From contig CAYMQY010000001.1 in the NCBI GenBank assembly GCA_964392655.1, forward strand, positions 1 to 54,550: a stretch of DNA of 54,550 nt, read 5' to 3'. Made by a program: the position numbers and the translations under genes. Position 1 is the stretch's first letter, and every line of letters begins with the position of its first letter. Below the pieces are notes generated by a model, which was not told the DNA's origin, did not search any database, and saw only the letters and a list, made by a program, of their open reading frames with translations. Of the stretch, positions 27,560-39,506 are shown piece after piece. This DNA comes from an uncultured Saprospiraceae bacterium. Lineage in GTDB: Bacteria > Bacteroidota > Bacteroidia > Chitinophagales > Saprospiraceae.

Positions 27560-28274
27560 TGTCGTTATTGGATTTGTCGTAATGTGAAACAAAAAACAAA
27601 TTTGGAACAAGGCCAAAGGTAAGAAGTTCAGTGCCTTCCACTAAAAAGATCAGCGCCCGATGTTCTCCTTTGAACACCGGGCGCATGATAAATGAATAGT
27701 GTTTGTTTGCCTGCATCGCCGGATTACGTGTGTGCTGCTCGAAAGGCGATGCTGCCGAAGGGTGTGTGTTGCGGCAATTGCTGCCGCGCGGAATGATACC
27801 GCGGAGGGAGTTTCAAGTGGAGGTTGGGGTTGGGGAGAAACGGATTTTGAGAAAAAATGTGGGGGGTAAAGGAGGGCAATCAAATGTTGTAATGCGGTTT
27901 TTGTGATGCCCGGTACAAAAGTACCGTATTCGGGCACGCTGCCAATCCGTGCAAACACCCGTTTTTTTATCAGGGAAAACCCTGAAGAAACTACTGCCCA
28001 CTAGTGATGGTAGTAGCTGCGCCTGTTCAGTCCTGCCAGTATTCCCTCTTCCCGATCTATGAAAATGGCGTTCTGATCGGATGTACAAAAAATGATTTTT
28101 TTAAAATTTTATGTTTAAAAAATTAAAATATATCAAAATTTAAAACCATTAATTTTTAATATTGCCGAATACTAAAAAACAAGACCGATAAATAATTCAG
28201 TTTTAGAATCGCCCTGACTTGTACTTATATTCGACCCTGATCCCTGTTTGCCCCGCGTGTTCATTAAAAAATCA

Positions 28275-29708
28275 ATGGCCATGAAAGCGTCCCCCCGTCC
28301 AAATGTAGGCCCATCTACCGATCCCCCTATTCCTGTCCAATTCCAGAATTTTTACCACAGCTCGGAAGCACTTCGTTTGGAAGGCTCTCTGGGTGGAGCA
28401 GGTATGCCTGTGCTGAAAGATGCCGGTCAAACTACCGGCACATTGCTCCTACTGCTTGGGGAAACTACGGCCTGGCAGGAAGCATGCGATTTTTTAGAAA
28501 TCTGCAAACAGCAGCACCGGCATGCCGTTTGTCTCGCGCTATTCAACCGTCCGCTGGAACACCACAAGGTGTGGGAGTTACTCCACTCGGGTGCCGACGA
28601 GGTGTTGCAATGGAACCAGTTGCCCGAGCCGGAACGCATCCTCCGGGCAAGGCTTGAGCGCTGGACAGCCGTAGACAACATTCTTGGATCGCCTGAAGTG
28701 CAGGAAAAACTCGTCGGCAGCAGTCCGTGTTGGCACAAACTCCTGCGGCAGGTGATAGAAATGGCGATGTTCAGCAGCGCCCCGGTGCTCCTGCTCGGCG
28801 AGAGCGGTACCGGCAAGGAACTGCTTGCACGTCTCATCCACCGGCTTGATGCTCGGGCAAACAAGCGCGATCTGGTGTTGTTGGACTGCACGACGGTGTC
28901 GCCCGAACTGTCGGGCAGCGAGTTTTTCGGCCACGAAAAAGGTGCGTTCACCAATGCCGTGTCCAACCGCGACGGGGCCTTTGCTCTGGCTGACGGCGGC
29001 ACCCTGTTTCTGGACGAGATCGGTGAACTGCCACCGGCCATGCAGGCCGAACTGCTACGCGCCGTGCAGGAAAAAATGTACAAACGCGTCGGGAGCAACT
29101 TTTGGCGGCACACCAACTTCCGGTTAGTGTCGGCCACCAACCGCGACCTGAGCGCCGAGGTACGGCACGGTCGCTTCCGCGAAGACCTGTTTTTCCGCCT
29201 TTCCGCCTGCGTATGCCACGTGCCGCCCCTGCGCAAGCGCATGGATGATGTGCCCGCTCTGGCCATCTGTTTTTTGAAACAAGCCCTGCGCACCGACACC
29301 CCGCCCCCATTCGACGAGCACCTGCTCACCTACTTGTGTACCCGCGAGTATCAGGGCAACGTGCGCGAATTGCAGCAACTCGTGTCGCGCATTGCTTACC
29401 GCCATACCGGCAACGGGCCGGTCACCGTGGGCGACCTGCCCGAATACGACCGCCCCGATATGGCCCGTCTGCAAAACCCCTGGAGCCTCTCCGATTTTGA
29501 GACGGCTCTGCGCATTGCCATTGCCAACGGAATCGGCCTGAAGGAAATCAAGCGCTGCGTCAGCAATAAAACCATGGAACTTGCGATTTCAGCATCCAAC
29601 GGGAATTTGCAGGATGCTGCCTACCAACTGCAAGTGAGCGATAGAACGATTCAACTGTATTTGGCAAGTGTACGGGATGGGGAAGTGGTGCCGGAAGGGA
29701 TGGATTAA
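28275..29708 (+). CDS. Sigma-54-dependent transcriptional activator (bacterial enhancer-binding protein) with an atypical N-terminal domain and a Fis-type helix-turn-helix
   Basis: AAA+ core with Walker A LLGESGTGKE, Walker B LFLDEIGEL and the sigma-54 contact loop GAFTNA (a variant of GAFTGA). C-terminal helix-turn-helix NGNLQDAAYQLQVSDRTIQLYL. The track start at 28248 is TTG; the first ATG is 28275. Confidence 0.85.
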   Translation: MAMKASPRPNVGPSTDPPIPVQFQNFYHSSEALRLEGSLGGAGMPVLKDAGQTTGTLLLLLGETTAWQEACDFLEICKQQHRHAVCLALFNRPLEHHKVWELLHSGADEVLQWNQLPEPERILRARLERWTAVDNILGSPEVQEKLVGSSPCWHKLLRQVIEMAMFSSAPVLLLGESGTGKELLARLIHRLDARANKRDLVLLDCTTVSPELSGSEFFGHEKGAFTNAVSNRDGAFALADGGTLFLDEIGELPPAMQAELLRAVQEKMYKRVGSNFWRHTNFRLVSATNRDLSAEVRHGRFREDLFFRLSACVCHVPPLRKRMDDVPALAICFLKQALRTDTPPPFDEHLLTYLCTREYQGNVRELQQLVSRIAYRHTGNGPVTVGDLPEYDRPDMARLQNPWSLSDFETALRIAIANGIGLKEIKRCVSNKTMELAISASNGNLQDAAYQLQVSDRTIQLYLASVRDGEVVPEGMD

Positions 29709-29709
29709 C

Positions 29710-30774
29710 TTATGGAAGAATTATTCCCCGACGCCATGTATCGGGAATTGGGGACCCTGACCCCTCCTTGTAGCTGCCGCCATCAGTCAGGCCAAGATTT
29801 TGTTTTGCCCATTCGCCGATCTGAAGCCAAGTGGTTGGCCCGGGGTCATTATCGCGGCTGGAACTGGCTTGCCGATGAGCAAAGACATAGCGGATTGTCG
29901 GTATCCTTGCTTTTAGCGCTGTCAGCAAACGGCGACCGGCTGCGATTTGTGCCGAAGTGGGTTCGCCACAAACACGACTGCCACTACCATGCCCGCGATT
30001 GACGTATTGACCGGAACTCCACCAGCACCTGCCCCTGTCATCTGCAAATGTGCCGGCAAACTCAATGCCTACGCTCCGGCTGTTGAAGCTTTGGGCGTGG
30101 TAAACAATTCTTGATTCCGGGTACAATTGAATGATACGCCCATTGGGCAAAACAACAAAGTGCGCCCCAACCCACAGGTAGTGCCGGGGGTCATTGTTTT
30201 GACTTCCGGCGGTTTGGTGCAACACCACGGCATTGACGCTGGAAAGTGCACGCGTGCCCCCCAAACAACTGGTTGCGTTTCGGGCAGATGCACACTGTCC
30301 AGGTGTGGCTTGGCCGGTAAAGTCCTCAATCGCACCAATTGCCACTGGAATCAAGGCCTCTAAGGCTCGTTTCAATGCATTCCAGGTAGCCGGCCCCAAT
30401 TTTCCGTCTGCCGTCAGCCCATTTGCTGCCTGAAATTTAGCGATGAGTTCTGCAAAAGCAGCTTCGTTCGGAGATTGATTTAAACGAAATACCTTCGACA
30501 CGATGTCATTGTAATGCCGGAGCCAGCCGACCGAAGCCGCGTTTTTTTTGTTGTAGGCCACAGCACTCTGAAGTGCATTACTGCCGAGCTCATCCAGCCA
30601 CTCATCCTCGTTCGTGTGCAGACTTTCTCGAGTCGGCGCCCGACGACAAGTCGGGCAATTGCAGTTTGCAGCATGGTATGTTTTGCCTTTTTGGCAATTC
30701 GAGCAGCCACAGCCACAAGAATGCCCGGATGGAGAGGCTTCCATTTCGAGTAATTCATCAAGGTAAGTACGCAT
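29710..30774 (-). CDS. N-acetylmuramoyl-L-alanine amidase (Amidase_2, AmpD/PGRP type) with a Cys-rich N-terminal extension and a PG_binding_1 repeat; no signal peptide
   Basis: PG_binding_1-like segment AKFQAANGLTADGKLGPATWNALKRAL. Amidase_2 blocks are AVVLHQTAG, AHFVVLPNGRIIQLY, NSRSVGIEFAG and FAHRQASSSRDND (His-x9-Asp spacing as in AmpD). The track start at 30810 is TTG. I prefer ATG 30774, which gives MRTYLDELLEME, the same first seven residues as the protease gene. Confidence 0.8.
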   Translation of the reverse strand: MRTYLDELLEMEASPSGHSCGCGCSNCQKGKTYHAANCNCPTCRRAPTRESLHTNEDEWLDELGSNALQSAVAYNKKNAASVGWLRHYNDIVSKVFRLNQSPNEAAFAELIAKFQAANGLTADGKLGPATWNALKRALEALIPVAIGAIEDFTGQATPGQCASARNATSCLGGTRALSSVNAVVLHQTAGSQNNDPRHYLWVGAHFVVLPNGRIIQLYPESRIVYHAQSFNSRSVGIEFAGTFADDRGRCWWSSGQYVNRGHGSGSRVCGEPTSAQIAAGRRLLTALKARIPTIRYVFAHRQASSSRDNDPGPTTWLQIGEWAKQNLGLTDGGSYKEGSGSPIPDTWRRGIILP

Positions 30775-30806
30775 TGTTTTTTCTGTTTGACCATCTGAGA
30801 ACCGAG

Positions 30807-31340
30807 TCAACCAACTCGCATAATTTCATCTAAAACCGTTTCATATTGTTGATAGGGTCCTCGCTGGTAGCCTCCCTGGTTTGTCCCTTTTGTGTACTCC
30901 CTCCGGGGTGGTTCTGCCCGGAGCCAAATCTCGACACGGCGATTCTTTTCAGGTCTGTCGGCGGAAACAAGCGTTAACTTACCCTCCGTATTCAACGTCA
31001 CCGGAACGGGAAATTTCAATTGAGCCCTGTACTTGTCATGCAAGGCGTAAAGTAGATGTGAAGCGGCTGAACTGGCTCTTTTCAAGCCGAGGTAATGGTT
31101 GAAGGTGAATGATCCACTTGTGTCGGCAAAACCGACAATCACTATTTCCAACACCGGTTGGGATGTTTGATGTGAATCGGCAATCATTTTTGCAAGATTG
31201 TTCAGGGCTTTAATGTGGTCGGGAAGAAGATCCGATTTGTTTAGTCGAAAACCATCAATCGTGAACGATTGAGGAACCCCGGTTTGGACGAATGCTCGCG
31301 GGGATGTGGTGGAGTCGGGAGACATGTTGTAGCCGTTCAT
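30807..31340 (-). CDS. OmpA-like peptidoglycan-binding domain protein; no signal peptide
   Basis: The pattern IVGFADTSGSFTFNHYLGLKRASSAASHL...NRRVEIWL fits an OmpA_C-like domain. I prefer ATG 31340 (MNGYNMSPD); the track start is 31412. The C-terminus ends ...YETVLDEIMRVG. Confidence 0.7.
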   Translation of the reverse strand: MNGYNMSPDSTTSPRAFVQTGVPQSFTIDGFRLNKSDLLPDHIKALNNLAKMIADSHQTSQPVLEIVIVGFADTSGSFTFNHYLGLKRASSAASHLLYALHDKYRAQLKFPVPVTLNTEGKLTLVSADRPEKNRRVEIWLRAEPPRREYTKGTNQGGYQRGPYQQYETVLDEIMRVG

Positions 31341-31399
31341 AATCAGGTTGTTTTTACAAATTAGAGAATGAGTTTTTTTTGAAATTGGCAAGCGACAGG

Positions 31400-32272
31400 T
31401 TATTTGAGCCAAGCCTGGACTTGGGTGTACACCTCGTTATTAAATAAAATGCCTCGGTTGTGGGAGTAAATTTCCTGTCCACCACTACATCCTGCTCCGG
31501 GACTTTTTGTGCAACCATCAAGATCTCCGCAGGCGCCGGTGTGAATACCTGCCAAAAAACGCTGGCGAGGAATACAGTCGTTTTCTCCCCAGACCATGTA
31601 CCATATTGGTGAACCACTGTGACCCGGGCAGGTGTCACCTTTGTAGGTAAATCTGTTTTTTTGAACAACCCCACCGATCCTGGGCTCCATATTGTCCATA
31701 GGCTCATCATCCCACCATTGGGTGAACGGCGCCTTGTCGGAAGGGTAGCCGCAGACTGTGACAACTTTGCCTTTCAAAAAATCTTTGTCCATGGGTATTT
31801 GGTGCGTGCCTTGGCCACAGCTCCCCCACCAACCCAATCGGGTATTTTGGATAGCCGTAAACTTCTTTTTTCCTACCTCTTCATTCAGAATGATCACCGC
31901 GTAATCGTGCCGGCGGTCAAAAGCGTTACGCCACTCGTCCCGTAGTCGAAAGACCGTTGTTGTGTATTCACCAAAAGGCTTCGATGCACCATGTCGTCCT
32001 GGAGATACCGTTATTCGAATAGGCAACAGTCCTTTTAATGGCCCGGAGTTTGGGACAAGGACATGCCCCGCCGTAAGCACATGGCGCGGACTTATAAGCA
32101 ATCCTGTTGCGGGCAATTGATCTGTATGTTCTACATTATTCGCATCTCGATATGTACAAATGATTGAACAAATCCACCGGAACGGCGGCCGAGTGTTGTT
32201 GTCAATTATACTACGAGTATCTGCACCCACAATTTCAAGTTCATTCCAGATTTCATCCAGATACGTTCGCAT
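31400..32272 (-). CDS. Trypsin-fold (clan PA, S1B/V8-like) serine protease; no signal peptide
   Basis: Candidate catalytic triad: His in LTAGHVL, Asp in RRHDYAVIIL, Ser in GDTCPGHSGSPIW (GxSGSP as in V8-type enzymes). Starts MRTYLDEIWNELE at ATG 32272. Confidence 0.8.
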   Translation of the reverse strand: MRTYLDEIWNELEIVGADTRSIIDNNTRPPFRWICSIICTYRDANNVEHTDQLPATGLLISPRHVLTAGHVLVPNSGPLKGLLPIRITVSPGRHGASKPFGEYTTTVFRLRDEWRNAFDRRHDYAVIILNEEVGKKKFTAIQNTRLGWWGSCGQGTHQIPMDKDFLKGKVVTVCGYPSDKAPFTQWWDDEPMDNMEPRIGGVVQKNRFTYKGDTCPGHSGSPIWYMVWGENDCIPRQRFLAGIHTGACGDLDGCTKSPGAGCSGGQEIYSHNRGILFNNEVYTQVQAWLK

Positions 32273-32326: not shown

Positions 32327-33280
32327 TCAACCCACCACTCCCTCCCGCAGCCAAGGGTCGCCGGCAACCGGCAAACGGGCATCGGCAGTGGAAAACGGCG
32401 GCTCGGTTCGAAGGGGTACGGTTCGGGTTCTGGAGGTTAAGCGCAGAAAATTCCCGCCCAGCACAAGGGCCTCCTGTTCGGGCGGCAGGCGCAGGGCAAA
32501 TACTTTTTCCAGTTCCACGCCGGGGTGCAGCCACGGTCCGTCGGATCCGAACAGCACCTTGTGGGCGCCGGCCCGCCGCACGGCCATCTCCAGCAGATCG
32601 AAGCGTCGCACGCCGGAGGTGTCGGTGAACACATTGGCGTGGCGCTCGAGGTACGGGATAAAATTCAGTTGCGCTTTCCAGTCGTCAGCAAAACTTCCGA
32701 GGTGCGGAATGATGAAGTTCACGTCGGGATACTCAGTCGCGAACAGCTCGATACTTGTCACATTTCCCATCACGTCGTACAACACCGGCAGCCGGAATGC
32801 CCGGGCTGATTCGCATACCTCACGGGTGATGTGCGCATCGTGCCGGTGTGCCTTGATGCCCCGAAAACCGTACTCTTCCACCGCTTCGCGCACCAGATCG
32901 AACACACGCCCCGCATCGCGCCCGGCATGCACGAAGGCAAAGCCGGAAAAGCGCTCGGGATGCTGCCGTACCAATCGGGCTACCATCCGGTTGGCCGCCC
33001 GGTAGTCAGAGTGAAACGCTGCGAACAGGTTGATTCTCTCGATGCCCGACTCGTCGGCCCAGCGCAGAAACTTAGTCAGGTCGGCCCGCGTATCCCAGGG
33101 ACCGTTGAGTCCGTCACCGGGGCCGTAGTGGCAGTGCGCGTCTATGACCGGAGTTTGCCGGCGTCGTCGCTCGCGCCACTTCGGGTATCGGTTGAAACCA
33201 GCACAGGCAGGACACATACAGGCATGCGAGTAGCCGGCACCTGCGATGCAACCGCGCAGGGTGTTAGTATCAAATTTCAT
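32327..33280 (-). CDS. Metal-dependent TIM-barrel amidohydrolase (Amidohydro_2-like) with a Cys-rich N-terminal extension
   Basis: HxH metal motif VIDAHCH, plus IPHLGSF and the late Asp in LFGSDGPWLHP. The N-terminal extension carries ...SHACMCPACAGF. Confidence 0.8.
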   Translation of the reverse strand: MKFDTNTLRGCIAGAGYSHACMCPACAGFNRYPKWRERRRRQTPVIDAHCHYGPGDGLNGPWDTRADLTKFLRWADESGIERINLFAAFHSDYRAANRMVARLVRQHPERFSGFAFVHAGRDAGRVFDLVREAVEEYGFRGIKAHRHDAHITREVCESARAFRLPVLYDVMGNVTSIELFATEYPDVNFIIPHLGSFADDWKAQLNFIPYLERHANVFTDTSGVRRFDLLEMAVRRAGAHKVLFGSDGPWLHPGVELEKVFALRLPPEQEALVLGGNFLRLTSRTRTVPLRTEPPFSTADARLPVAGDPWLREGVVG

Positions 33281-33297: not shown

Positions 33298-33328
33298 GTC
33301 AGGCGGTGACTGGCAGTCACCGCCTGAC
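33298..33328 (-). promoter_or_regulatory. Intra-operon GC-rich stem-loop between the 723-aa gene and the amidohydrolase gene
   Basis: Perfect 13-bp stem, gtcaggcggtgac (33298-33310) pairing with gtcaccgcctgac (33316-33328), with a 5-nt loop. No T tract follows on the minus strand. Confidence 0.5.
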
Positions 33329-33343: not shown

Positions 33344-35515
33344 TCAGGCCACTTTGCCGCGCTGCTCCAGGAGCCGGCGTTGCAGGTGGATCGAAGGTTG
33401 AACAGCATCTATCCGCCCGCCGGTGATATCGGCAGTGAGATCCACCCCTGTGACGGCGCGGTAGGCGTGCATGTACGCTTGTATCTGCGGGCGCCAGAAG
33501 TTGGCCCAGTTGGCCGCCGAAAAGCGATTGGTCACGCTTGTCCAGTCTCCAAACCGGATAGAGAGCAGCAGTTGTTCGCCAAATACTCCGAGGTCACGAA
33601 AATGGGACACATTGGTCTTGGTCCAACCCATCAGGTTGTTGAGCGCCGCGACACGATCCATCCACGGCTCGGGGTAGGCCACCATGATTCGAGTGGGCAG
33701 AAATTCCCGAAACTCAGGCCGTGCCAACAACCACTGCTGCATCAGCATTTCCGACCGCGCCACTGAAGGCAGATCGCCATACTGGTTGTGCGCGCCTTCG
33801 GACAATACGAGGTGAACTTCCTTGAGTGCGTTCAGGATCGGGAAGGCGTCGGGTTGCACTGTCATGTCATCCGCCTGTTTGTAGTATCTGGTGGTCAGGT
33901 TTAGTAGCGTATGGAACGCTTCAATGAACTTGGAGCGGCTGTCGGCAAAACGCATATTCTGTACAGCAGTACCCTGGAGCGTGATACCGTAGTGGTGGTC
34001 GTACTCGTATGCGCGACGGCGCACGGTAAGGCGGTGTTGTTCATCCTGCAAGTACCCCCACATGAGGTTGCTGAGCGGCCGCAGCGGATCAATTTCGAGG
34101 TGCGCAAGAGGATCAACCTGACCGGGACCTTTGATGTTTTGAAATCGGCGTCCAATCGCATTGAGTCCTTGCACCATCATGCTTTCTTCCATCCAGTACG
34201 ACCAGATGAGCTCGAGGAAACAGGGTGTGGCGAGTTTACTCTGAATAATACCGAAGCAGTTTGTGTCGGTTGAGGTGTTGCCCGTACTGGAGTACACCTG
34301 CAAGGCTTCTTCAAGGGCCAGGGTCTTGAGATCGGAATCTTTCAACTTGCGCCGAATAACCGCCAGGTACGGGATTGTTGACACAGCGCCGTTTACAGAT
34401 TCCTTGTACTCGTTCCACCACTCGTCCAGTTTTTTGACATCGGGATTCCCGTTCACCAAAGGCACATTGCTGTTCAAATTTTCCAGCGTGCTTTCATCAA
34501 AAACGCCGTCGGTCATACAATTGACCATAACAAACGATTCGGTGGCTACTTTAAGGCTGTGGTAACCATCTACGCCCATGAACGGTAAGGCCCGCGTTTG
34601 GCTCAGGCTTTTTACTTTGCCTTGCATCTTGGAGTTTTTGGTCAATGATGTTTGCGTGGCGCCGCAAAAAACCTCATCCATGAAATGGTGGAAATTCGTG
34701 AACGACAAGTCTTGCGTGCTTTTCTGGATGATCATCCACAAAGCGAGGTCGTAGGTGATCTGACCGGCAGAGGGCTGCAAGCGGGCGTTGATCGTATTGG
34801 ACAACTTGCTGGCGATGGTTGCGCTCAGATCGGCAAATGAATCAGCGATCTCATCGGCCACCTTACCCAGCGGATTGGTGTTGGAGTTCGCGCCGTCCGG
34901 CAAAAGCAACAGTTCGAAATTGGTTTTCAACTCTGCATTGAATGCCTCCAACAGTGGATCATCAACCGAAATTGCCGTTGACAATAAACCCAGCGTGACA
35001 GAGGGTGTACCAAAAACCAGTTGCGGATACAGAATGCCCGTCGTTTGCGTCTGAGCAGGAATATTGCCCAAAAATTTGAGGTGGACCAGCCAAACGGCAG
35101 TAAGCGCATCTGTGCTCGAAGCGGCTTGTAGCGCTACCGTCGTATGGCGCAAGTTTGCCAATGCCGGCGAGGACAAACCCGCACCGGTGTTCATGTCCAT
35201 GTATCCAATTTGAGGATTGCTCGTCGCTTGGTTGTCGTTAAACACCACGTCTTGGAGAAAGCGTCCGAAATCATCAGCATTGGTCAGGTCATAAACTTCT
35301 CCGGTAAACGTGGCTTGTGTCGGAATGGTCGTGCTAGTCGGGTCAATGGCAATCTCGAACGACATCTCAGTGGTGAACGGAACACTGGCCCCTACCGTGG
35401 TTTGGTTGACATCAACGTTCAGGGACGTAAGTTCCAGGATGACATCAACCGCCTCGACATTCTGTGCAGCCGTCCGTTGGTATCGGAGCCTCAGTTTATC
35501 AAAATTTGCACTCAT
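33344..35515 (-). CDS. Large (723 aa) hypothetical protein; no recognisable domain or signal peptide
   Basis: Clean ATG at 35515, 13 nt after the upstream stop. Amino-acid composition is balanced, unlike the shadow ORFs on other frames. Distinctive blocks include FLELIWSYWMEESMMVQGLNAIGRRFQN. Confidence 0.75.
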   Translation of the reverse strand: MSANFDKLRLRYQRTAAQNVEAVDVILELTSLNVDVNQTTVGASVPFTTEMSFEIAIDPTSTTIPTQATFTGEVYDLTNADDFGRFLQDVVFNDNQATSNPQIGYMDMNTGAGLSSPALANLRHTTVALQAASSTDALTAVWLVHLKFLGNIPAQTQTTGILYPQLVFGTPSVTLGLLSTAISVDDPLLEAFNAELKTNFELLLLPDGANSNTNPLGKVADEIADSFADLSATIASKLSNTINARLQPSAGQITYDLALWMIIQKSTQDLSFTNFHHFMDEVFCGATQTSLTKNSKMQGKVKSLSQTRALPFMGVDGYHSLKVATESFVMVNCMTDGVFDESTLENLNSNVPLVNGNPDVKKLDEWWNEYKESVNGAVSTIPYLAVIRRKLKDSDLKTLALEEALQVYSSTGNTSTDTNCFGIIQSKLATPCFLELIWSYWMEESMMVQGLNAIGRRFQNIKGPGQVDPLAHLEIDPLRPLSNLMWGYLQDEQHRLTVRRRAYEYDHHYGITLQGTAVQNMRFADSRSKFIEAFHTLLNLTTRYYKQADDMTVQPDAFPILNALKEVHLVLSEGAHNQYGDLPSVARSEMLMQQWLLARPEFREFLPTRIMVAYPEPWMDRVAALNNLMGWTKTNVSHFRDLGVFGEQLLLSIRFGDWTSVTNRFSAANWANFWRPQIQAYMHAYRAVTGVDLTADITGGRIDAVQPSIHLQRRLLEQRGKVA

Positions 35516-35528
35516 AATTTTTCAAATT

Positions 35529-36860
35529 TTAAAGTGAACGTTGTTGTTGCATAACCGCCCACTGGAACAGCATTCCTGTGAGGGTTTTGTTTTCGGCAAA
35601 TGGGGTAATGGCGTGGTCGGCCCGGGCCTGCCCAACTGCGGCGAACACCATGCCCGGACGGGCCGAATACATGGCCCGGGGATGCTGTTGCCACAGTCGG
35701 TACATCTGCCGGAGCCGCTCCGGTTGGCGTTCGTTCAGCGGAAACACGTCGCGGAGCGCCGCTCCCCGCAGTGCCTGCGGCCGGTGCAGCAGGATGGTCT
35801 GTACAAAATCCGGCAGCGCCTCGTGCAAGGCCCGAATGATCGTTTGCTGTGCCGCAGGCTGTTCGCCCGGCGGGTAGAAATTTTCCCAGATGCGCTCCAG
35901 GCGGTCCCACTGCGGGTCGGGGTACAGCACCCGCCCGAAAGCAATGCTTATCTTGACCCGAATCCAGGGGAAGGGGTGCGGATCGCCGTCGGGAAGCCGG
36001 AACACGAAATACTCCGGCAGGCTCACTACACCGATCAGTCCGGTGGTAGCGCTCACGCCCAGGGTGGCTACTGACCAGACGTCGGACAAAATTTCCGAAA
36101 TCCACAGGCGGTAGAGTTTCCAGGCCGTGCTGCGTTGTGGTTCCTGTTCGGCCTTTTGTTCCAGCATCGCCGTGACGGTGTTAACCAAATCGAGCAGCGC
36201 TGCGCCCTGATGCCCCACCTCGTGTACCAGCGACGAACCGATGCCGCTTCCCACCATTCGTTCCCGAGGCACCTTGATGATAGCCACCGGGTTGGAATGA
36301 CCACCCGGCAAACGGGTTCGGGCGCGCCGGATGGCGGCCCCGTGGCCGCGGTCGAGGTAGCAGATCAGCGGCGGCGGATGGTAGTAGTCGCCGTCGAGGC
36401 GCAAGGTGTCGCGGGCAAGTATATCGAGTCCTGCCAACCAGATGCCTGTTTCGTGTTCGCTGCGCTGGTTGAGCACATCGGCAAAAATGTCGAAGGTGTC
36501 GAGCAGGGCATTGAACCGCAACTTAAGCAAGGAAAAGCCCGTTTGCAGACGTTTGGGCGATTCTTCCGGGTTGTCCTGCAGACCGGTGATAAACCGTCGT
36601 ACCTGGCGTCCCAGTTGTTTGCGCCCGCTGCGGATCAGGTCGTGGATGTGACGCAAAGCCCGGTTTTCCAGCCCTGCTGCCACCACCATCGGCATGGTTG
36701 CCTCGAAGGGCTTGACCTGTACCAACCGTGCCAGCAGCGCCTGCGCTTCGCCGATGAGGTGTTGCCGATGTATATCGGAAACCTGACTGTCGGCGCCCGT
36801 TGCGGGTGTTGCCTCGGTCACACGCCCGTGAGGATGAGTTGATTGCCTTGCCGGTACCAT
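35529..36860 (-). CDS. Hypothetical protein with a single HExxH motif (possible zinc metallopeptidase)
   Basis: Contains SSLVHEVGHQGAALLD, with a downstream acidic segment WISEILSDVW about 35 aa later. ATG 36860 overlaps the upstream gene by 43 nt. The alternative in-frame GTG at 36821 overlaps the upstream TGA as GTGA. Confidence 0.7.
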   Translation of the reverse strand: MVPARQSTHPHGRVTEATPATGADSQVSDIHRQHLIGEAQALLARLVQVKPFEATMPMVVAAGLENRALRHIHDLIRSGRKQLGRQVRRFITGLQDNPEESPKRLQTGFSLLKLRFNALLDTFDIFADVLNQRSEHETGIWLAGLDILARDTLRLDGDYYHPPPLICYLDRGHGAAIRRARTRLPGGHSNPVAIIKVPRERMVGSGIGSSLVHEVGHQGAALLDLVNTVTAMLEQKAEQEPQRSTAWKLYRLWISEILSDVWSVATLGVSATTGLIGVVSLPEYFVFRLPDGDPHPFPWIRVKISIAFGRVLYPDPQWDRLERIWENFYPPGEQPAAQQTIIRALHEALPDFVQTILLHRPQALRGAALRDVFPLNERQPERLRQMYRLWQQHPRAMYSARPGMVFAAVGQARADHAITPFAENKTLTGMLFQWAVMQQQRSL

Positions 36861-37489: not shown

Positions 37490-38239
37490 TTAGAGTGTGA
37501 CGATGATTTGGTCGCCCTGGCGCGTCCAGGTGCCGGAGTTGGGGAAATCTGGTGCTGTGGTTCCGCCGCCACCGCCGTTGGATGTCGGGGCATTGAACGA
37601 AATATTACTGCCGCCAACGGGGGTGAGCAAACCAGGAGCATGTTTGGAGGCCGCCATTTTGAGGGCGTTGCGGGCAATAGCCCAAGGGGATACGCCACGT
37701 CTTCCGCGTGCACGGCGCATACCGGATGCCGTACGGCGGGCAGCGGAGTTTGACAGGCGTACGATCCGGCGGGCGACTTCAAATTCGCGGTCTTCATTGC
37801 TCATGCCCTCCAGGTTTACTTCAAACAGAGTGGAGGCCCAACTACCGAGTTTGCCGCCAATCATCCCACCGACCGGACCACCGAAAAACGACCCGGCGGC
37901 TTTGCCTACAACCGGCAAGGCTGTTTTGGCTACTTTTTTCAAACCGCCGATGAGCGCCTGACCCGCACTGGATTTGGCGAAGTTGGATACCCCGCGGGCG
38001 GCTCGGCGAACCAATTTGCCGAGAAACTGGTCGAGTTCTTCCTCGCTGTTCACGGCCAACAATTCGGCAGCCAGTTCGTATTCGGCTTCCTGACTCAGGC
38101 CGTATTCGCCTTCCCACTCTTCCTCGCCCTCCCATTCGCCTTCGTAGTCGCCTTCGTACTCCCCTTCATAATTGTACTCCTGGTCAAATTCGTTGTTTTC
38201 GAATCCGCCTTCGTTGAGGAAACCATATTCATGGCCCAT
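37490..38239 (-). CDS. Glycine-zipper protein A (249 aa) with an E/Y/G/W-rich acidic leader
   Basis: N-terminal EYEGDYEGEWEGEEEWEGEY repeats, then EYELAAELLAVNSEEELDQFLGKLVRRA. (GxxxG)4 zipper G-SFF-G-GPV-G-GMI-G-GKL-G, an Arg-rich segment, and C-terminal NSGTWTRQGDQIIVTL. Confidence 0.7.
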   Translation of the reverse strand: MGHEYGFLNEGGFENNEFDQEYNYEGEYEGDYEGEWEGEEEWEGEYGLSQEAEYELAAELLAVNSEEELDQFLGKLVRRAARGVSNFAKSSAGQALIGGLKKVAKTALPVVGKAAGSFFGGPVGGMIGGKLGSWASTLFEVNLEGMSNEDREFEVARRIVRLSNSAARRTASGMRRARGRRGVSPWAIARNALKMAASKHAPGLLTPVGGSNISFNAPTSNGGGGGTTAPDFPNSGTWTRQGDQIIVTL

Positions 38240-38519
38240 TTCCTAGTTCATGATGCGATCCATGTTGTGCATAGCAGATAAATTTTGTTTGAATGAATAA
38301 ATGGAGAAAGCATGCTATGCCAATATCCTTTCAAGCAGGATGCCGAAAAAGATAAACCATTGAAAATCAGTTGTAATTGAAAAAAACAGCGAATTTTTTT
38401 TCGGAAAGACCGAAATGGGCAGGGTGGGCGCGAAATTTTTTTCAGGGGTTTTTCCGGGCGAAAAAAATGCTGTAAAAATCATATTTACAACGACTTACGC
38501 CTCAAACACAACACTTGGC

Positions 38520-39506
38520 CTAATGCCCCTCATGCTCAAACACCGCCTCTACTAATTTCAACGCTGAACTGCGAAATTTCCCCGCAATACCTGTCGGAAG
38601 TTCTTCCGACATAAGTAACGGAGCCTCTGCAAACGTGCGGAGCCATTGTACCTCCCGGTACGAAGCCCCGGTAGCAGGGTCTGACTTGGGATCGGATTGT
38701 ATGATGCCCAAACCATACAATTGCATTTTTCCGCTGATGGCGAGTACGATTTCGCCCGTTTGCGCCCGACGGGCCAATGTGCGTACACCTTTCGCCCGAG
38801 CAGCAGCGGCCTCGGCAGCGAGCAGGGGCCACATTTCGTCGAACAGGTCGGTGTCCCACAATCGGTAGGCAGCCCAGTATGGCCGGAGTATTTCCTGCGG
38901 ATTCAACGGCAGGTGATGCATCCGAAAATATGGCTCCCATGCCTCGTTTTTTTCCTGCAAACGTATCCACCAAACGCCTGCGCCGCTGCTGATGCGCCGC
39001 CGCAAATCAGTCCGTTGAATCTGTGTGTTTTGAAAAAGGGGGAATGCGGCAAAAGACTTGACCTCGGCAGGGCGTATTTTCCAAATGTGTACCGACAAAC
39101 CTTTCAGGCGACTGAATTCCTGCTGAAATGAGCCAAGAAGCACAAGGTCATCGGTAGCGATGAGATTTTCGGCATTGCTGCTGTATGTCCAGTTAAACGA
39201 GCCGGTGAGCAGCAGGCGCTCGTCGAGCAGGGCAAACTTGTGGTGCATGAGCGCCGTGTCGCGGTATGCGTACAGGCTTCCGCCGAGTTTTATAAATTTT
39301 TGAAAATCCAGTCCATTCGGATGAATGTTCTGGCTGTCGTACTCCAGCAGGAGTTCGACCGGGATACCGGCACGCAGTTTTTTCAAAAGCGTCTCGAAAA
39401 TATCGCGGTGGGAAAACCAGCAAACGGCAATGCGGATGCTGGTTCGGGCATCGGCAAGATACCGGCAAAGCACGGCGGACAGGTTTTGGAAATATACTTC
39501 AGGCAT
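38520..39506 (-). CDS. Phospholipase D/nuclease superfamily protein (single HKD motif) fused to an unassigned ~180-aa C-terminal domain
   Basis: Canonical HxK(x4)D(x6)GSxN motif: HHKFALLDERLLLTGSFN. ATG at 39506. No signal peptide. Confidence 0.8.
   Translation of the reverse strand: MPEVYFQNLSAVLCRYLADARTSIRIAVCWFSHRDIFETLLKKLRAGIPVELLLEYDSQNIHPNGLDFQKFIKLGGSLYAYRDTALMHHKFALLDERLLLTGSFNWTYSSNAENLIATDDLVLLGSFQQEFSRLKGLSVHIWKIRPAEVKSFAAFPLFQNTQIQRTDLRRRISSGAGVWWIRLQEKNEAWEPYFRMHHLPLNPQEILRPYWAAYRLWDTDLFDEMWPLLAAEAAAARAKGVRTLARRAQTGEIVLAISGKMQLYGLGIIQSDPKSDPATGASYREVQWLRTFAEAPLLMSEELPTGIAGKFRSSALKLVEAVFEHEGH

Follow-up and report, generated by a model that had tools for sequence, protein, structure and literature searches.

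The window, a 54,550-nucleotide stretch of DNA from an uncultured Saprospiraceae bacterium, carries two neighbouring genes for proteins of 443 and 723 amino acids (p443 and p723), and it raises the question of what this pair does. The original prediction described the two as orphan proteins encoded by well-formed coding sequence. Both open reading frames are present on the minus strand and are real genes, with more than 5079 homologs for p443 and more than 1812 for p723 at E ≤ 0.001. As to function, the description as orphans still holds: the homologs (over 1000 for each protein) are all unnamed, and no curated family, solved relative or mention of either family was found in the searched literature. 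As to relatives it does not hold, because both families are very large and spread over about 12 phyla. The p443 homologs are at least 49% identical across these phyla and its relatives occur at no fewer than 521 loci in species-representative genomes. Between Bacteroidota, Planctomycetota and Acidobacteriota, both proteins are about 50-60% identical.

The gene packing was detected to be very tight. Exactly 13 nt separate p443 from p723, and this spacing is mostly 3-46 nt in related loci. As predicted, the ATG of p443 at 36860 overlaps the upstream gene for a 216-aa glycine-zipper protein by 43 nt, and an alternative GTG at 36821 forms GTGA together with the stop of that gene. In related loci the p443 homolog starts from -46 to about +30 nt relative to the zipper gene stop, and in several of them the overlapping ATG is the sole start on offer. 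These start positions support ATG 36860 and a tight coupling. Consistently, the packing, which is conserved across related loci, agrees with coupled translation.

p443 contains a single HExxH motif (HEVGH, residues 213-217) and further downstream SEILSD with E256 and D260. E256 lies 39 residues past H217, rather than the roughly 35 given earlier. None of 109 homologs departs from H213, E214, H217, E256 and D260; a relative with 23% identity, encoded in a variant cassette (L084), keeps all five as well, with HEVSH in place of HEVGH and REMFSD in place of SEILSD. An invariant HExxH plus a downstream ExxxD is the hallmark of gluzincins of the thermolysin and neprilysin types. The AlphaFold2 (AF2) model of p443 (pLDDT 88.9) is mostly helical and begins with a 130-residue helical bundle. 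HExxH falls in predicted helix 205-222, and E256 and D260 fall at the start of predicted helix 254-267. The only strands are two short ones (165-170 and 193-198), both before the HExxH helix, and the second directly precedes it. The family also has invariant blocks of its own, YLDRGHGAAIRRARTRLPGG and DPHPFPWIR.

The expectation that p443 would resemble no known peptidase family was borne out by profile, PDB-sequence and Foldseek searches, all of which were empty. No match was found in Pfam or NCBIfam (both at E ≤ 0.1), in PADLOC or PHROGs, or in a profile search of PDB sequences, and when 32 family members were scanned at E ≤ 10, no peptidase family turned up repeatedly, even weakly. Foldseek against PDB, which may miss a local core match, gave no match at E ≤ 0.001, and its top-ranking matches included no peptidase. 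A mixed beta-sheet with an edge strand, superposable on known zincins, was not found. Because neither a zincin by Foldseek nor a Pfam peptidase profile was detected, the assignment as a peptidase rests on the two short motifs, from which we infer zinc ligation and peptidase activity. Its motifs are compatible with a new family of gluzincin-type metallopeptidases, and p443 is probably a new kind of zinc protease.

p723 had been described as having no recognisable domain. This is not true for its N-terminal region, whose strands at residues 8-168 form a beta-sandwich in the AF2 model. The region is unaligned in most relatives; 9 of 64 diverse relatives carry a CarboxypepD_reg domain (PF13620/PF13715) at the N-terminus, and p723 of the window gives no Pfam match to it. 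For the all-alpha domain the description stands, since it matches no known fold. This domain of about 480-490 aa is the conserved module of the family: homologs from different phyla share 52-62% identity along about 66% of the query, and profile positions ~195-686 are matched in at least 1271 clusters (50% identity). R, E, H, Y and W are found at invariant positions, and the many invariant polar residues include R457, N460, R501, E504, H535 and E601. The three Trp/Tyr-rich blocks singled out before are all in p723, and no other blocks of its family are as well conserved. No Pfam, NCBIfam, PADLOC, PHROGs or PDB-sequence match was found for p723, nor a Foldseek match of its model against PDB or BFVD. 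For neither protein was a confident structural or profile match found, although their AlphaFold models are confident.

We compared 83 related loci. One or two glycine-zipper genes always precede the p443-p723 pair, and zipper, p443 and p723 occur together in 76-79 of the 83. Zipper homologs picked independently were found in the same cassette. Downstream of the pair lie an Amidohydro_2 gene and a sigma-54 activator, the latter found in convergent orientation in 53 of the 83 loci. In many loci the consensus TGGCAC-N5-TTGC (9-10 of 10 matches) precedes the first zipper gene, and the degenerate element of the window aligns with TGGTAC-N5-TTGC of L005 and L006. The hairpin past the p723 stop codon (dG -28 kcal/mol, z -6.0) is terminator- or attenuator-like without a U tract and is conserved in L004 and L006. 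Of 70 loci, 19 reach -25 kcal/mol or lower at this position, and several of these form clean stem-loops whose sequences are unrelated. No further gene family occurs in more than 17 of the 83 loci, and the cassette has no conserved transporter or ATPase. In the window, a PLD/DrmC-like gene adjoins the cassette; such a neighbour is present in 1 of 83 loci only.

Table 1. Cassette features in the window
Feature	Position	Strand	Basis or remark
Sigma-54-like -24/-12 element, degenerate (CGGCAT-N5-TTGA)	38331..38345	-	alignment with L005, L006
Glycine-zipper protein A (zip249), 249 aa as read	37490..38239	-	acidic N-terminus ending ELDQFLG
Glycine-zipper protein B (zip216), 216 aa	36818..37468	-	acidic pro-region 1-42 ending ELDYFLG
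p443, HExxH protein, 443 aa, zincin-like family	35529..36860	-	ORF, homologs, AF2 model
HExxH codons (H213-E-V-G-H217)	36210..36224	-	invariant in homologs; predicted helix
ExxxD codons (E256-I-L-S-D260), candidate third zinc ligand and supporting Asp	36081..36095	-	both invariant
p723, 723 aa	33344-35515	-	ORF, homologs
p723 N-terminal variable region (residues 1 to ~245), beta-sandwich and linker helices	34781..35515	-	AF2, relatives
p723 C-terminal conserved all-alpha domain (residues ~246-723)	33344..34780	-	family profile, AF2
GC-rich hairpin, 14 bp, directly past p723 stop codon	33298..33328	-	folding
Amidohydro_2 enzyme, core cassette member	32327..33280	-	Pfam 5e-18
Accessory gene block, variable between loci	29710..32272	-	
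Trypsin-like protease, accessory	31400-32272	-	Pfam; MRTYLDE(I/L) leader
OmpA-like, accessory	30807-31412	-	Pfam; MRTYLDE(I/L) leader
Amidase_2+PG_binding_1, accessory	29710-30810 (likely start ATG 30774)	-	Pfam; MRTYLDE(I/L) leader
Sigma-54 enhancer-binding protein, convergent	28248..29708	+	Pfam Sigma54_activat 6.5e-56

The zipper proteins look like proproteins. Residues 1-74 of zip249, ending in ELDQFLG, have a net charge of -26, and the remainder has a net charge of +17 with 15% Gly. The stretch E.ELA.ELL.V..E.ELDQFLG ranks with the best-conserved parts of the zipper family across phyla. The extreme C-terminus of the family, GxWxRxGxxIxLxG, is invariant, and the C-terminal motif of zip216 reads GTWYRQGNQLILTGV. 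In a second cassette protein family (c10), a glycine-rich, zipper-like segment likewise comes after a D/E-x-FLG junction. From the conservation and an apparent likeness to double-glycine leaders, we infer a candidate cleavage site at or near the ELDQFLG motif. The zipper proteins have no classical transmembrane helix (maximal Kyte-Doolittle value over 19 residues, 0.41 for zip216 and 1.01 for zip249). The cytoplasmic look noted earlier for p723 is shared by p443. None of the cassette proteins of the window carries a signal peptide or an obvious transmembrane segment.

The products of the accessory genes have an N-terminal leader in common, MxTLLDEIL plus H..CxCxxC, which is specific to the cassette. 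MxTLLDEIL and/or CxCxxC was found in 43 of 191 downstream same-strand ORFs, compared with 0 of 560 ORFs from other parts of these loci. Behind it stand Amidase_2, M74, M23, VanY, M15, YkuD, OmpA, PG_binding_1 and trypsin-like domains, so that a shared N-terminal module is joined to variable C-terminal enzymatic domains, as in polymorphic effectors. The trypsin-like gene occurs in 17 of 83 loci and Amidase_2 in 8 of 83, which makes the peptidoglycan enzymes accessory. In conclusion, p443, p723 and the zipper proteins are the core of a sigma-54-controlled cassette linked to cell-wall-attacking enzymes.

What would such a core do? Our preferred answer, still tentative, is that p443-p723 is a sigma-54-induced maturation module in which the putative zincin processes zipper proproteins together with p723. 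p443 would be a cytoplasmic, gluzincin-like zinc metallopeptidase acting on the proteins encoded just upstream; it would cut off their acidic pro-region at or near the invariant ELDQFLG and free the cationic, glycine-rich, membrane-active part. p723 would be its obligate partner. Its alpha domain may add a second activity, either recognition/assembly or catalysis, and its variable beta-sandwich may confer specificity. The matured zipper proteins would then let the leader-tagged, signal-peptide-free peptidoglycan enzymes reach a cell wall, the producer's own or a neighbour's. Zinc binding and proteolysis by p443, the position of the cut, the contribution of p723 and the target that is eventually reached are the conjectural parts of this proposal. 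It is suggested by the invariant HExxH/ExxxD on predicted helices, by the linkage and spacing of zipper, p443 and p723, by the zipper proteins as candidate dedicated substrates, with their charge split and the recurrent FLG junction in c10, and by the sigma-54 promoter and activator, the leader-tagged candidate clients and the strong hairpin after p723. Against it stand the missing zincin match, the lack of a classical zipper transmembrane helix and the accessory nature of the peptidoglycan enzymes. Since no transporter or ATPase is conserved, the export route is left unexplained. More broadly and a little more tentatively, the pair may be the engine of an unrecognised, horizontally spread, sigma-54-switched apparatus, in which a new zincin and an alpha-domain protein mature zipper proproteins and so deploy polymorphic leader-tagged wall enzymes without known secretion machinery.

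Nor does the maturation model assign a function to the highly conserved Amidohydro_2 gene (54 of 83 loci, 51-81% identity) or to the frequent alpha-oxoamine-synthase-like (PLP) gene (37 loci). In the window, Amidohydro_2 has an N-terminal CxCxxC/WRERR extension that is missing from most orthologs. These two enzymes, with M20 in 7 loci, are typical of small-molecule chemistry and would find a place in a RiPP-like modification pathway, where the zippers would be leader-bearing precursors modified by Amidohydro_2 and the p723 alpha domain, together with the PLP enzyme and M20 in loci that have them, or would carry a small molecule built on them, and where p443 would be only the final leader peptidase. 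The strongly conserved leader-like segment, the invariant zipper C-terminus and the many invariant polar residues of the p723 alpha domain agree with this. Such a pathway is nonetheless unlikely: zipper "cores" of 130-190 residues are far above the usual size, no known RiPP enzyme family was found by Pfam or NCBIfam, the PLP gene is missing from the window, and the leader-tagged peptidoglycan enzymes would be left unexplained.

These tagged enzymes would be accounted for if the cassette is an interbacterial weapon, with p443, p723 and the zippers as a new export or delivery route for leader-recognised polymorphic anti-cell-wall effectors, and with cargo or target specificity set by the variable p723 beta-sandwich. 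The effector set is like T6SS cell-wall toxins and has no Sec signals, the leader is specific to the cassette, and p723 is a variable N-domain on a conserved body. The distribution across phyla is wide and patchy, which suggests horizontal transfer. However, the loci whose called genes carried Pfam labels showed no genes of T6SS, eCIS or another secretion system, and none recurred across the 83 loci, in which neither a secretion apparatus nor cognate immunity genes are conserved. With no conserved membrane channel, ATPase or immunity gene, no recognisable effector in many loci, and p443 and p723 looking soluble and cytoplasmic, a weapon is somewhat less likely than a modification pathway.

Still less likely is self-lysis or abortive infection, in which a stress or phage signal would act through the activator on the operon, p443 would activate pore-forming zippers in a gasdermin-like way, and cytoplasmic peptidoglycan hydrolases would then lyse the cell as in holin-endolysin lysis. 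Signal-peptide-free endolysin-like enzymes do adjoin membrane-active candidates, a pro-region lies beside a protease, and the window has its PLD/DrmC-like neighbour. But that neighbour is not conserved, the zippers have no holin-type transmembrane segments, and transcriptional induction by sigma-54 is slow for abortive infection. Moreover, PADLOC-DB 2.0 gave no defence-system match for zip216, zip249, p443 or p723, and the cassette was not found on phages or viral contigs in phage collections.

Most doubtful of all is that p443 is not a peptidase and that HExxH/ExxxD is used structurally or for a different metal-dependent reaction, with the pair and the amidohydrolase forming a metabolic or envelope-remodelling pathway with structural zippers, for although no zincin fold or profile was detected, the YkuD L,D-transpeptidase and OmpA-like cargo is constructive rather than lytic and the amidohydrolase is very highly conserved, the gluzincin hallmark is invariant and the neighbouring zippers resemble proproteins.

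The pair thus represents two large protein families outside the described ones, tied to a sigma-54 switch, zippers and peptidoglycan enzymes without export signals. Solving the cassette could yield a new peptidase family with a defined substrate motif and a new fold for enzymatic activity or assembly; it might also reveal an unfamiliar way in which bacteria antagonise one another or lyse. If the broader apparatus is real, it would be a new route for antagonism or controlled lysis in at least 12 phyla. Among the cultivable bacteria that carry the cassette and would allow direct tests are Janthinobacterium sp. (GCA_000344615.1), Paraburkholderia phymatum STM815, Chitinophaga flava and Hymenobacter species.

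Compared with known systems, the cassette is like protease-activated bacterial gasdermins in that a putative protease gene adjoins a candidate membrane-active proprotein with a terminal extension that would keep it inactive. Unlike them, it has no gasdermin fold or sequence, its putative protease would be a metalloenzyme of a new family, and the extension is N-terminal and acidic. T6SS anti-cell-wall effectors include Tae/Tlde-type enzymes and carry the N-terminal trafficking motifs MIX, FIX and RIX. Similarly, the cassette places variable amidase, M23, VanY and L,D-transpeptidase-like domains behind a common N-terminal tag without Sec signals, but the tag differs and no immunity genes were recognised. 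As in holin-endolysin cassettes and type 10 secretion, signal-peptide-free peptidoglycan hydrolases lie beside small candidate membrane-active proteins. In contrast to holin-endolysin cassettes, the zippers have no classical transmembrane helices, the hydrolases are accessory with endolysin-like genes in a minority of loci, and the core (p443, p723, amidohydrolase, sigma-54 activator) has no counterpart there.

Double-glycine-leader bacteriocins and microcins include the glycine-zipper Cdz bacteriocins of Caulobacter. The acidic zipper leader (...S-x-x-E-L-x-x-F-x-G-x), followed by a cationic, glycine-rich, probably membrane-active part, appears to resemble their leaders. Unlike these bacteriocins, the zippers are proteins of 200-260 aa and the candidate leader peptidase is a putative metalloenzyme; no C39-peptidase ABC exporter was found among the Pfam-labelled called genes of the cassette loci, and no immunity gene in the loci. 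p443 itself differs from the gluzincins in being almost all-helical, with its own invariant blocks and no profile or Foldseek similarity. Its likeness to thermolysin and neprilysin (MEROPS clan MA(E)) lies in the predicted active site, with HExxH on a helix, a beta-strand just before that helix, and the Glu of ExxxD, the candidate third ligand, on a later predicted helix.

The two core genes of the cassette encode a 443-aa HExxH protein (p443) and its 723-aa partner (p723). As the original prediction had it, they are two minus-strand ORFs spaced by 13 nt, and the ATG of p443 overlaps the upstream gene of the 216-aa glycine-zipper protein (zip216) by 43 nt, with an alternative GTG at 36821 that gives a GTGA start/stop overlap. 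In related loci the p443 start lies between -46 and about +30 nt relative to the stop codon of the zipper gene, the overlapping ATG is the sole possible start in several of them, and the gap between p443 and p723 is mostly 3-46 nt. In homology searches at E<=0.001, p443 retrieved more than 5079 proteins and p723 more than 1812, all of them unnamed or "hypothetical", and a profile of p723 relatives matched 1271 clusters at 50% identity among 1.84 billion representatives. Judged by their sequences, both are real, strongly constrained genes.

At least 521 loci with a p443 relative were detected in a scan of one representative genome per species, which started from the peptides RGHGAA and HEVGHQ as seeds and therefore cannot alone prove motif conservation. 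The best 80 of these loci (identity 49% or more) belong to Bacteroidota, Acidobacteriota, Nitrospirota, Planctomycetota (including an anammox genome), Verrucomicrobiota, Gemmatimonadota, Chloroflexota, Methylomirabilota, Myxococcota, Deinococcota, Calditrichota and Pseudomonadota. The p443 of the closest relative, locus L004, is 92% identical to that of the window, which belongs to a Saprospiraceae bacterium. Rhizobium, Ensifer and Paraburkholderia carry additional copies on large replicons. Cultivable strains with the cassette include Janthinobacterium sp. (GCA_000344615.1), Paraburkholderia phymatum STM815 and Chitinophaga flava. A phage or plasmid origin was rejected, because phage genomes and 2.9 million viral contigs gave no cassette match and all plasmid matches fell on unannotated records of 1.5-2.8 Mb, the size of a chromid or megaplasmid.

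p443 contains a single HExxH motif, HEVGH at residues 213-217. H213, E214 and H217 are invariant in 109 homologs, so the predicted conservation of the motif held, and E256 and D260 are invariant as well. The Glu/Asp segment that the original prediction placed about 35 residues downstream is present, but E256-ILS-D260 begins 39 residues past H217. Further invariant blocks are L169-R-G-H-G-A-A-I-R178, P198-R-E-R201, P294-H-P296 and I300-R301. Even a 23%-identical homolog from a variant cassette on a Paraburkholderia plasmid retains LHEVSHN and W..REMFSD. In the AlphaFold2 model (pLDDT 88.9, pTM 0.86), HExxH sits within helix 205-222, immediately after strand 193-198, and ExxxD stands at the start of helix 254-267. 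Thermolysin- and neprilysin-type gluzincins are recognised by an HExxH followed further on by an ExxxD. On its conserved residues and its model, p443 most probably acts in the manner of a gluzincin.

No match to a characterised family was found for p443 or p723 by profile or structure, in agreement with the original prediction. Neither protein had a match in Pfam, NCBIfam, PADLOC or PHROGs, 32 p443 homologs searched against Pfam at E<=10 shared no recurrent family, and phmmer and profile searches of PDB sequences returned no relative. PDB sequence matches to sigma-70, calmodulin and thermosome, from single-sequence and profile searches, were rejected as noise. Foldseek with the confident models found nothing at E<=0.001 in the PDB for either protein, nor in BFVD for p723; its top matches (GPCR, Ig-like, TcdA1 at probability 0.03) were dismissed as meaningless. 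Since neither fold nor profile searches placed it, p443 was assigned to no existing family. It would most probably be a known kind of enzyme by action that lies outside every family searched (Pfam, NCBIfam, PDB, Foldseek).

The p723 model (pLDDT 81.4 overall, mostly >85 over residues 430-720) begins with a beta-sandwich (strands at 8-168); a linker of low prediction quality connects it to an all-alpha domain, which extends from about residue 250 to the C-terminus. Conservation is confined to the alpha domain. Alignments of distant relatives cover roughly two thirds of the query with 52-62% identity, and matches to profile positions about 195-686 occur throughout the family. The N-terminal part differs in length and type; the sole family recognised among 64 relatives is an N-terminal CarboxypepD_reg domain, in 9 of them. 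The three predicted Trp/Tyr-rich blocks were found in p723, and its sequence lacks an HExxH-type metal motif. R457, N460, R501, E504, Y505, R527, H535, R599, E601, R654, Y681, Y685 and several Trp are invariant across 64 diverse members, a pattern that would suit an active or binding site.

The window cassette proteins were searched by tblastn in 83 related loci, where many misses were due to contig ends. Zipper proteins were found in 76-79 loci, p723 in 79, Amidohydro_2 in 54 (51-81% identity) and the opposite-strand sigma-54 enhancer-binding protein in 53. Two zipper homologs from an independent search sit in the same gene arrangement. When all ORFs were clustered, the only further family of high frequency was an alpha-oxoamine-synthase-like PLP enzyme, present in 37 loci and absent from the window. 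Every remaining cluster occurred in at most 17 loci, so there is no conserved transporter or ATPase. The JGI name "DUF697 family" carried by some zipper homologs was rejected, as no Pfam match stands behind it.

Two observations concern a neighbour and a variant of the cassette. Directly upstream lies a gene for a PLD-like nuclease or phospholipase (PLDc_2, with weak PADLOC matches to DrmC/Mko); it is probably unrelated, because it is co-located only in L004. On the plasmid of Paraburkholderia sp. PGU19 (L084, 6844-16807), the variant cassette encodes two His/Glu-repeat zipper-like proteins and the 23%-identical HExxH homolog. Its other members are unrelated proteins of 176, 652 and 388 aa, an M20 peptidase and Amidohydro_2, and a LuxR-type regulator takes the place of the sigma-54 activator. 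BLAST and hhalign found no significant p723 homolog there; only a 27-residue ARPEF...EPW stretch aligned (P=0.03).

Upstream of the first zipper gene, many loci carry a near-perfect TGGCAC-N5-TTGC element (9-10 of 10 matches). The window has a degenerate version, located some 60 nt before the conserved start of the zipper gene. It was recognised only through comparison with related loci; a scan of the window alone, allowing up to 2 mismatches, performed no better than chance. A perfect hairpin directly follows p723, and L004 and L006 share it. Folding of the 80 nt behind the p723 stop gave -25 kcal/mol or lower in 19 of 70 loci, several of which form clean stem-loops of unrelated sequence. The hairpin is probably a terminator or attenuator between core and accessory genes, and it marks the zipper genes, p443 and p723 as the core transcript.

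In close relatives the start of zipper gene A lies 11 codons upstream of that in the window (MHNMDRIMNEEMG...), and an MH(D/N)xDR N-terminus is common across phyla. In the window, codon 10 of this extension is an in-frame TAG, so the gene is read from ATG 38239. Candidate explanations for the TAG are a sequencing error, a genuine nonsense mutation followed by re-initiation, and readthrough.

Positions of the cassette features and neighbouring elements in the window
Feature	Position	Strand	Remark
p443 ORF, 443 aa	35529-36860	-	ORF reading
p723 ORF, 723 aa	33344-35515	-	ORF reading
Degenerate sigma-54 -24/-12 element CGGCAT-N5-TTGA	38331-38345	-	aligns with TGGTAC-N5-TTGC of loci L005, L006
Perfect 14-bp GC-rich hairpin, no U tract	33298-33328	-	dG -28 kcal/mol, z -6; directly after p723 stop codon
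Leader of trypsin-like gene, MRTYLDEI	32234-32272	-	ORF reading
Leader of amidase gene, MRTYLDEL	30774-30810	-	ORF reading
Upstream extension of zipper gene A	38237-38272	-	
In-frame TAG in this extension	38243-38245	-	
OmpA-like gene	30807-31412	-	between trypsin-like and amidase genes
Amidohydro_2 N-terminal extension	33146-33280	-	
PLD-like gene	38520-39506	-	

Zipper proteins across phyla share E.ELA.ELL.V..E.ELDQFLG followed by a cationic glycine zipper, together with LELEGLS.ED.EFE.ARRFVR, AA..HAPGLL and an extreme C-terminus SG.W.R.G..I.L.G. The net charge up to FLG is -26 in the 249-aa protein A (zip249) and -12 in zip216, and that of the rest is +17 and +10, respectively. This composition suggests a proprotein architecture, in which an acidic piece would mask a membrane-active part.

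MxTLLDEIL as an N-terminal helix, H..CxCxxC as a knuckle, or both occur in 43 of 191 same-strand downstream ORFs versus 0 of 560 elsewhere in the same loci, a cassette-specific tag. The leader pattern is MRTYLDELLEME...CxCxxC, with carriers in related loci L008-L069, mostly peptidoglycan enzymes that lack signal peptides; the H..CxCxxC that often follows the leader is a possible zinc knuckle. The downstream gene set varies between loci, yet nearly all recognisable domains of the tagged proteins are peptidoglycan-directed (Amidase_2, M74, M23, VanY, M15/Extensin_C, YkuD, OmpA, PG_binding_1); trypsin-like proteases also occur. The window cassette proteins have no signal peptide and no clear transmembrane helix.

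Three further proteins were noted beside the tagged ones. The OmpA-like peptidoglycan-binding protein, without signal peptide, has a 66%-identical copy in the equivalent position of locus L041 and could be a structural partner or immunity-like factor. Amidohydro_2 carries a 45-residue N-terminal extension (..H-A-CMCPAC..YPKWRERRRRQ) that is missing from most orthologs and resembles the N-terminus of the cassette family c10 (CxCxxC, NWRERR, FLG, glycine zipper), which suggests a fusion or deletion remnant. The c10 genes (L003 14383-15267, L015 14224-15165 and others) combine a CxCxxC knuckle, one or two NW(R/K)ERR, a D/E-x-FLG junction and a glycine zipper with a C-terminal domain of PD...EVK pattern, PD-(D/E)xK nuclease-like and with no Pfam match.

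The best-supported reading, though tentative, is a sigma-54-induced maturation module. p443 would cleave off the acidic pro-region of the zipper proteins, whose translation immediately precedes its own, with the FLG-K bond within EELDQFLGKLVRR as candidate cleavage site, and p723 would act together with p443; the matured zipper proteins would then open peptidoglycan to the tagged wall enzymes. This reading is limited because p443 matches no zincin fold, the cleavage site is putative, classical transmembrane helices are missing from the zipper proteins, an export route is not evident, and the conserved amidohydrolase and PLP enzyme get no role. A RiPP-like modification pathway is unlikely, a new delivery route for interbacterial toxins rather more so, and programmed lysis or abortive infection appears improbable; all three include a maturation step and differ mainly in the role of p723 and the target. 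A non-peptidase, envelope-remodelling role, set against the gluzincin-like residues of p443, is the most doubtful.

The ...S..EL..F.G. junction of the zipper proteins resembles the double-glycine leaders of bacteriocins, a likeness that serves only as a lead. Literature searches, including one by motif strings, found no description of the cassette. In the databases and literature searched, no described counterpart exists for the cassette as a unit, its leader tag, its zipper family or the alpha domain of p723.
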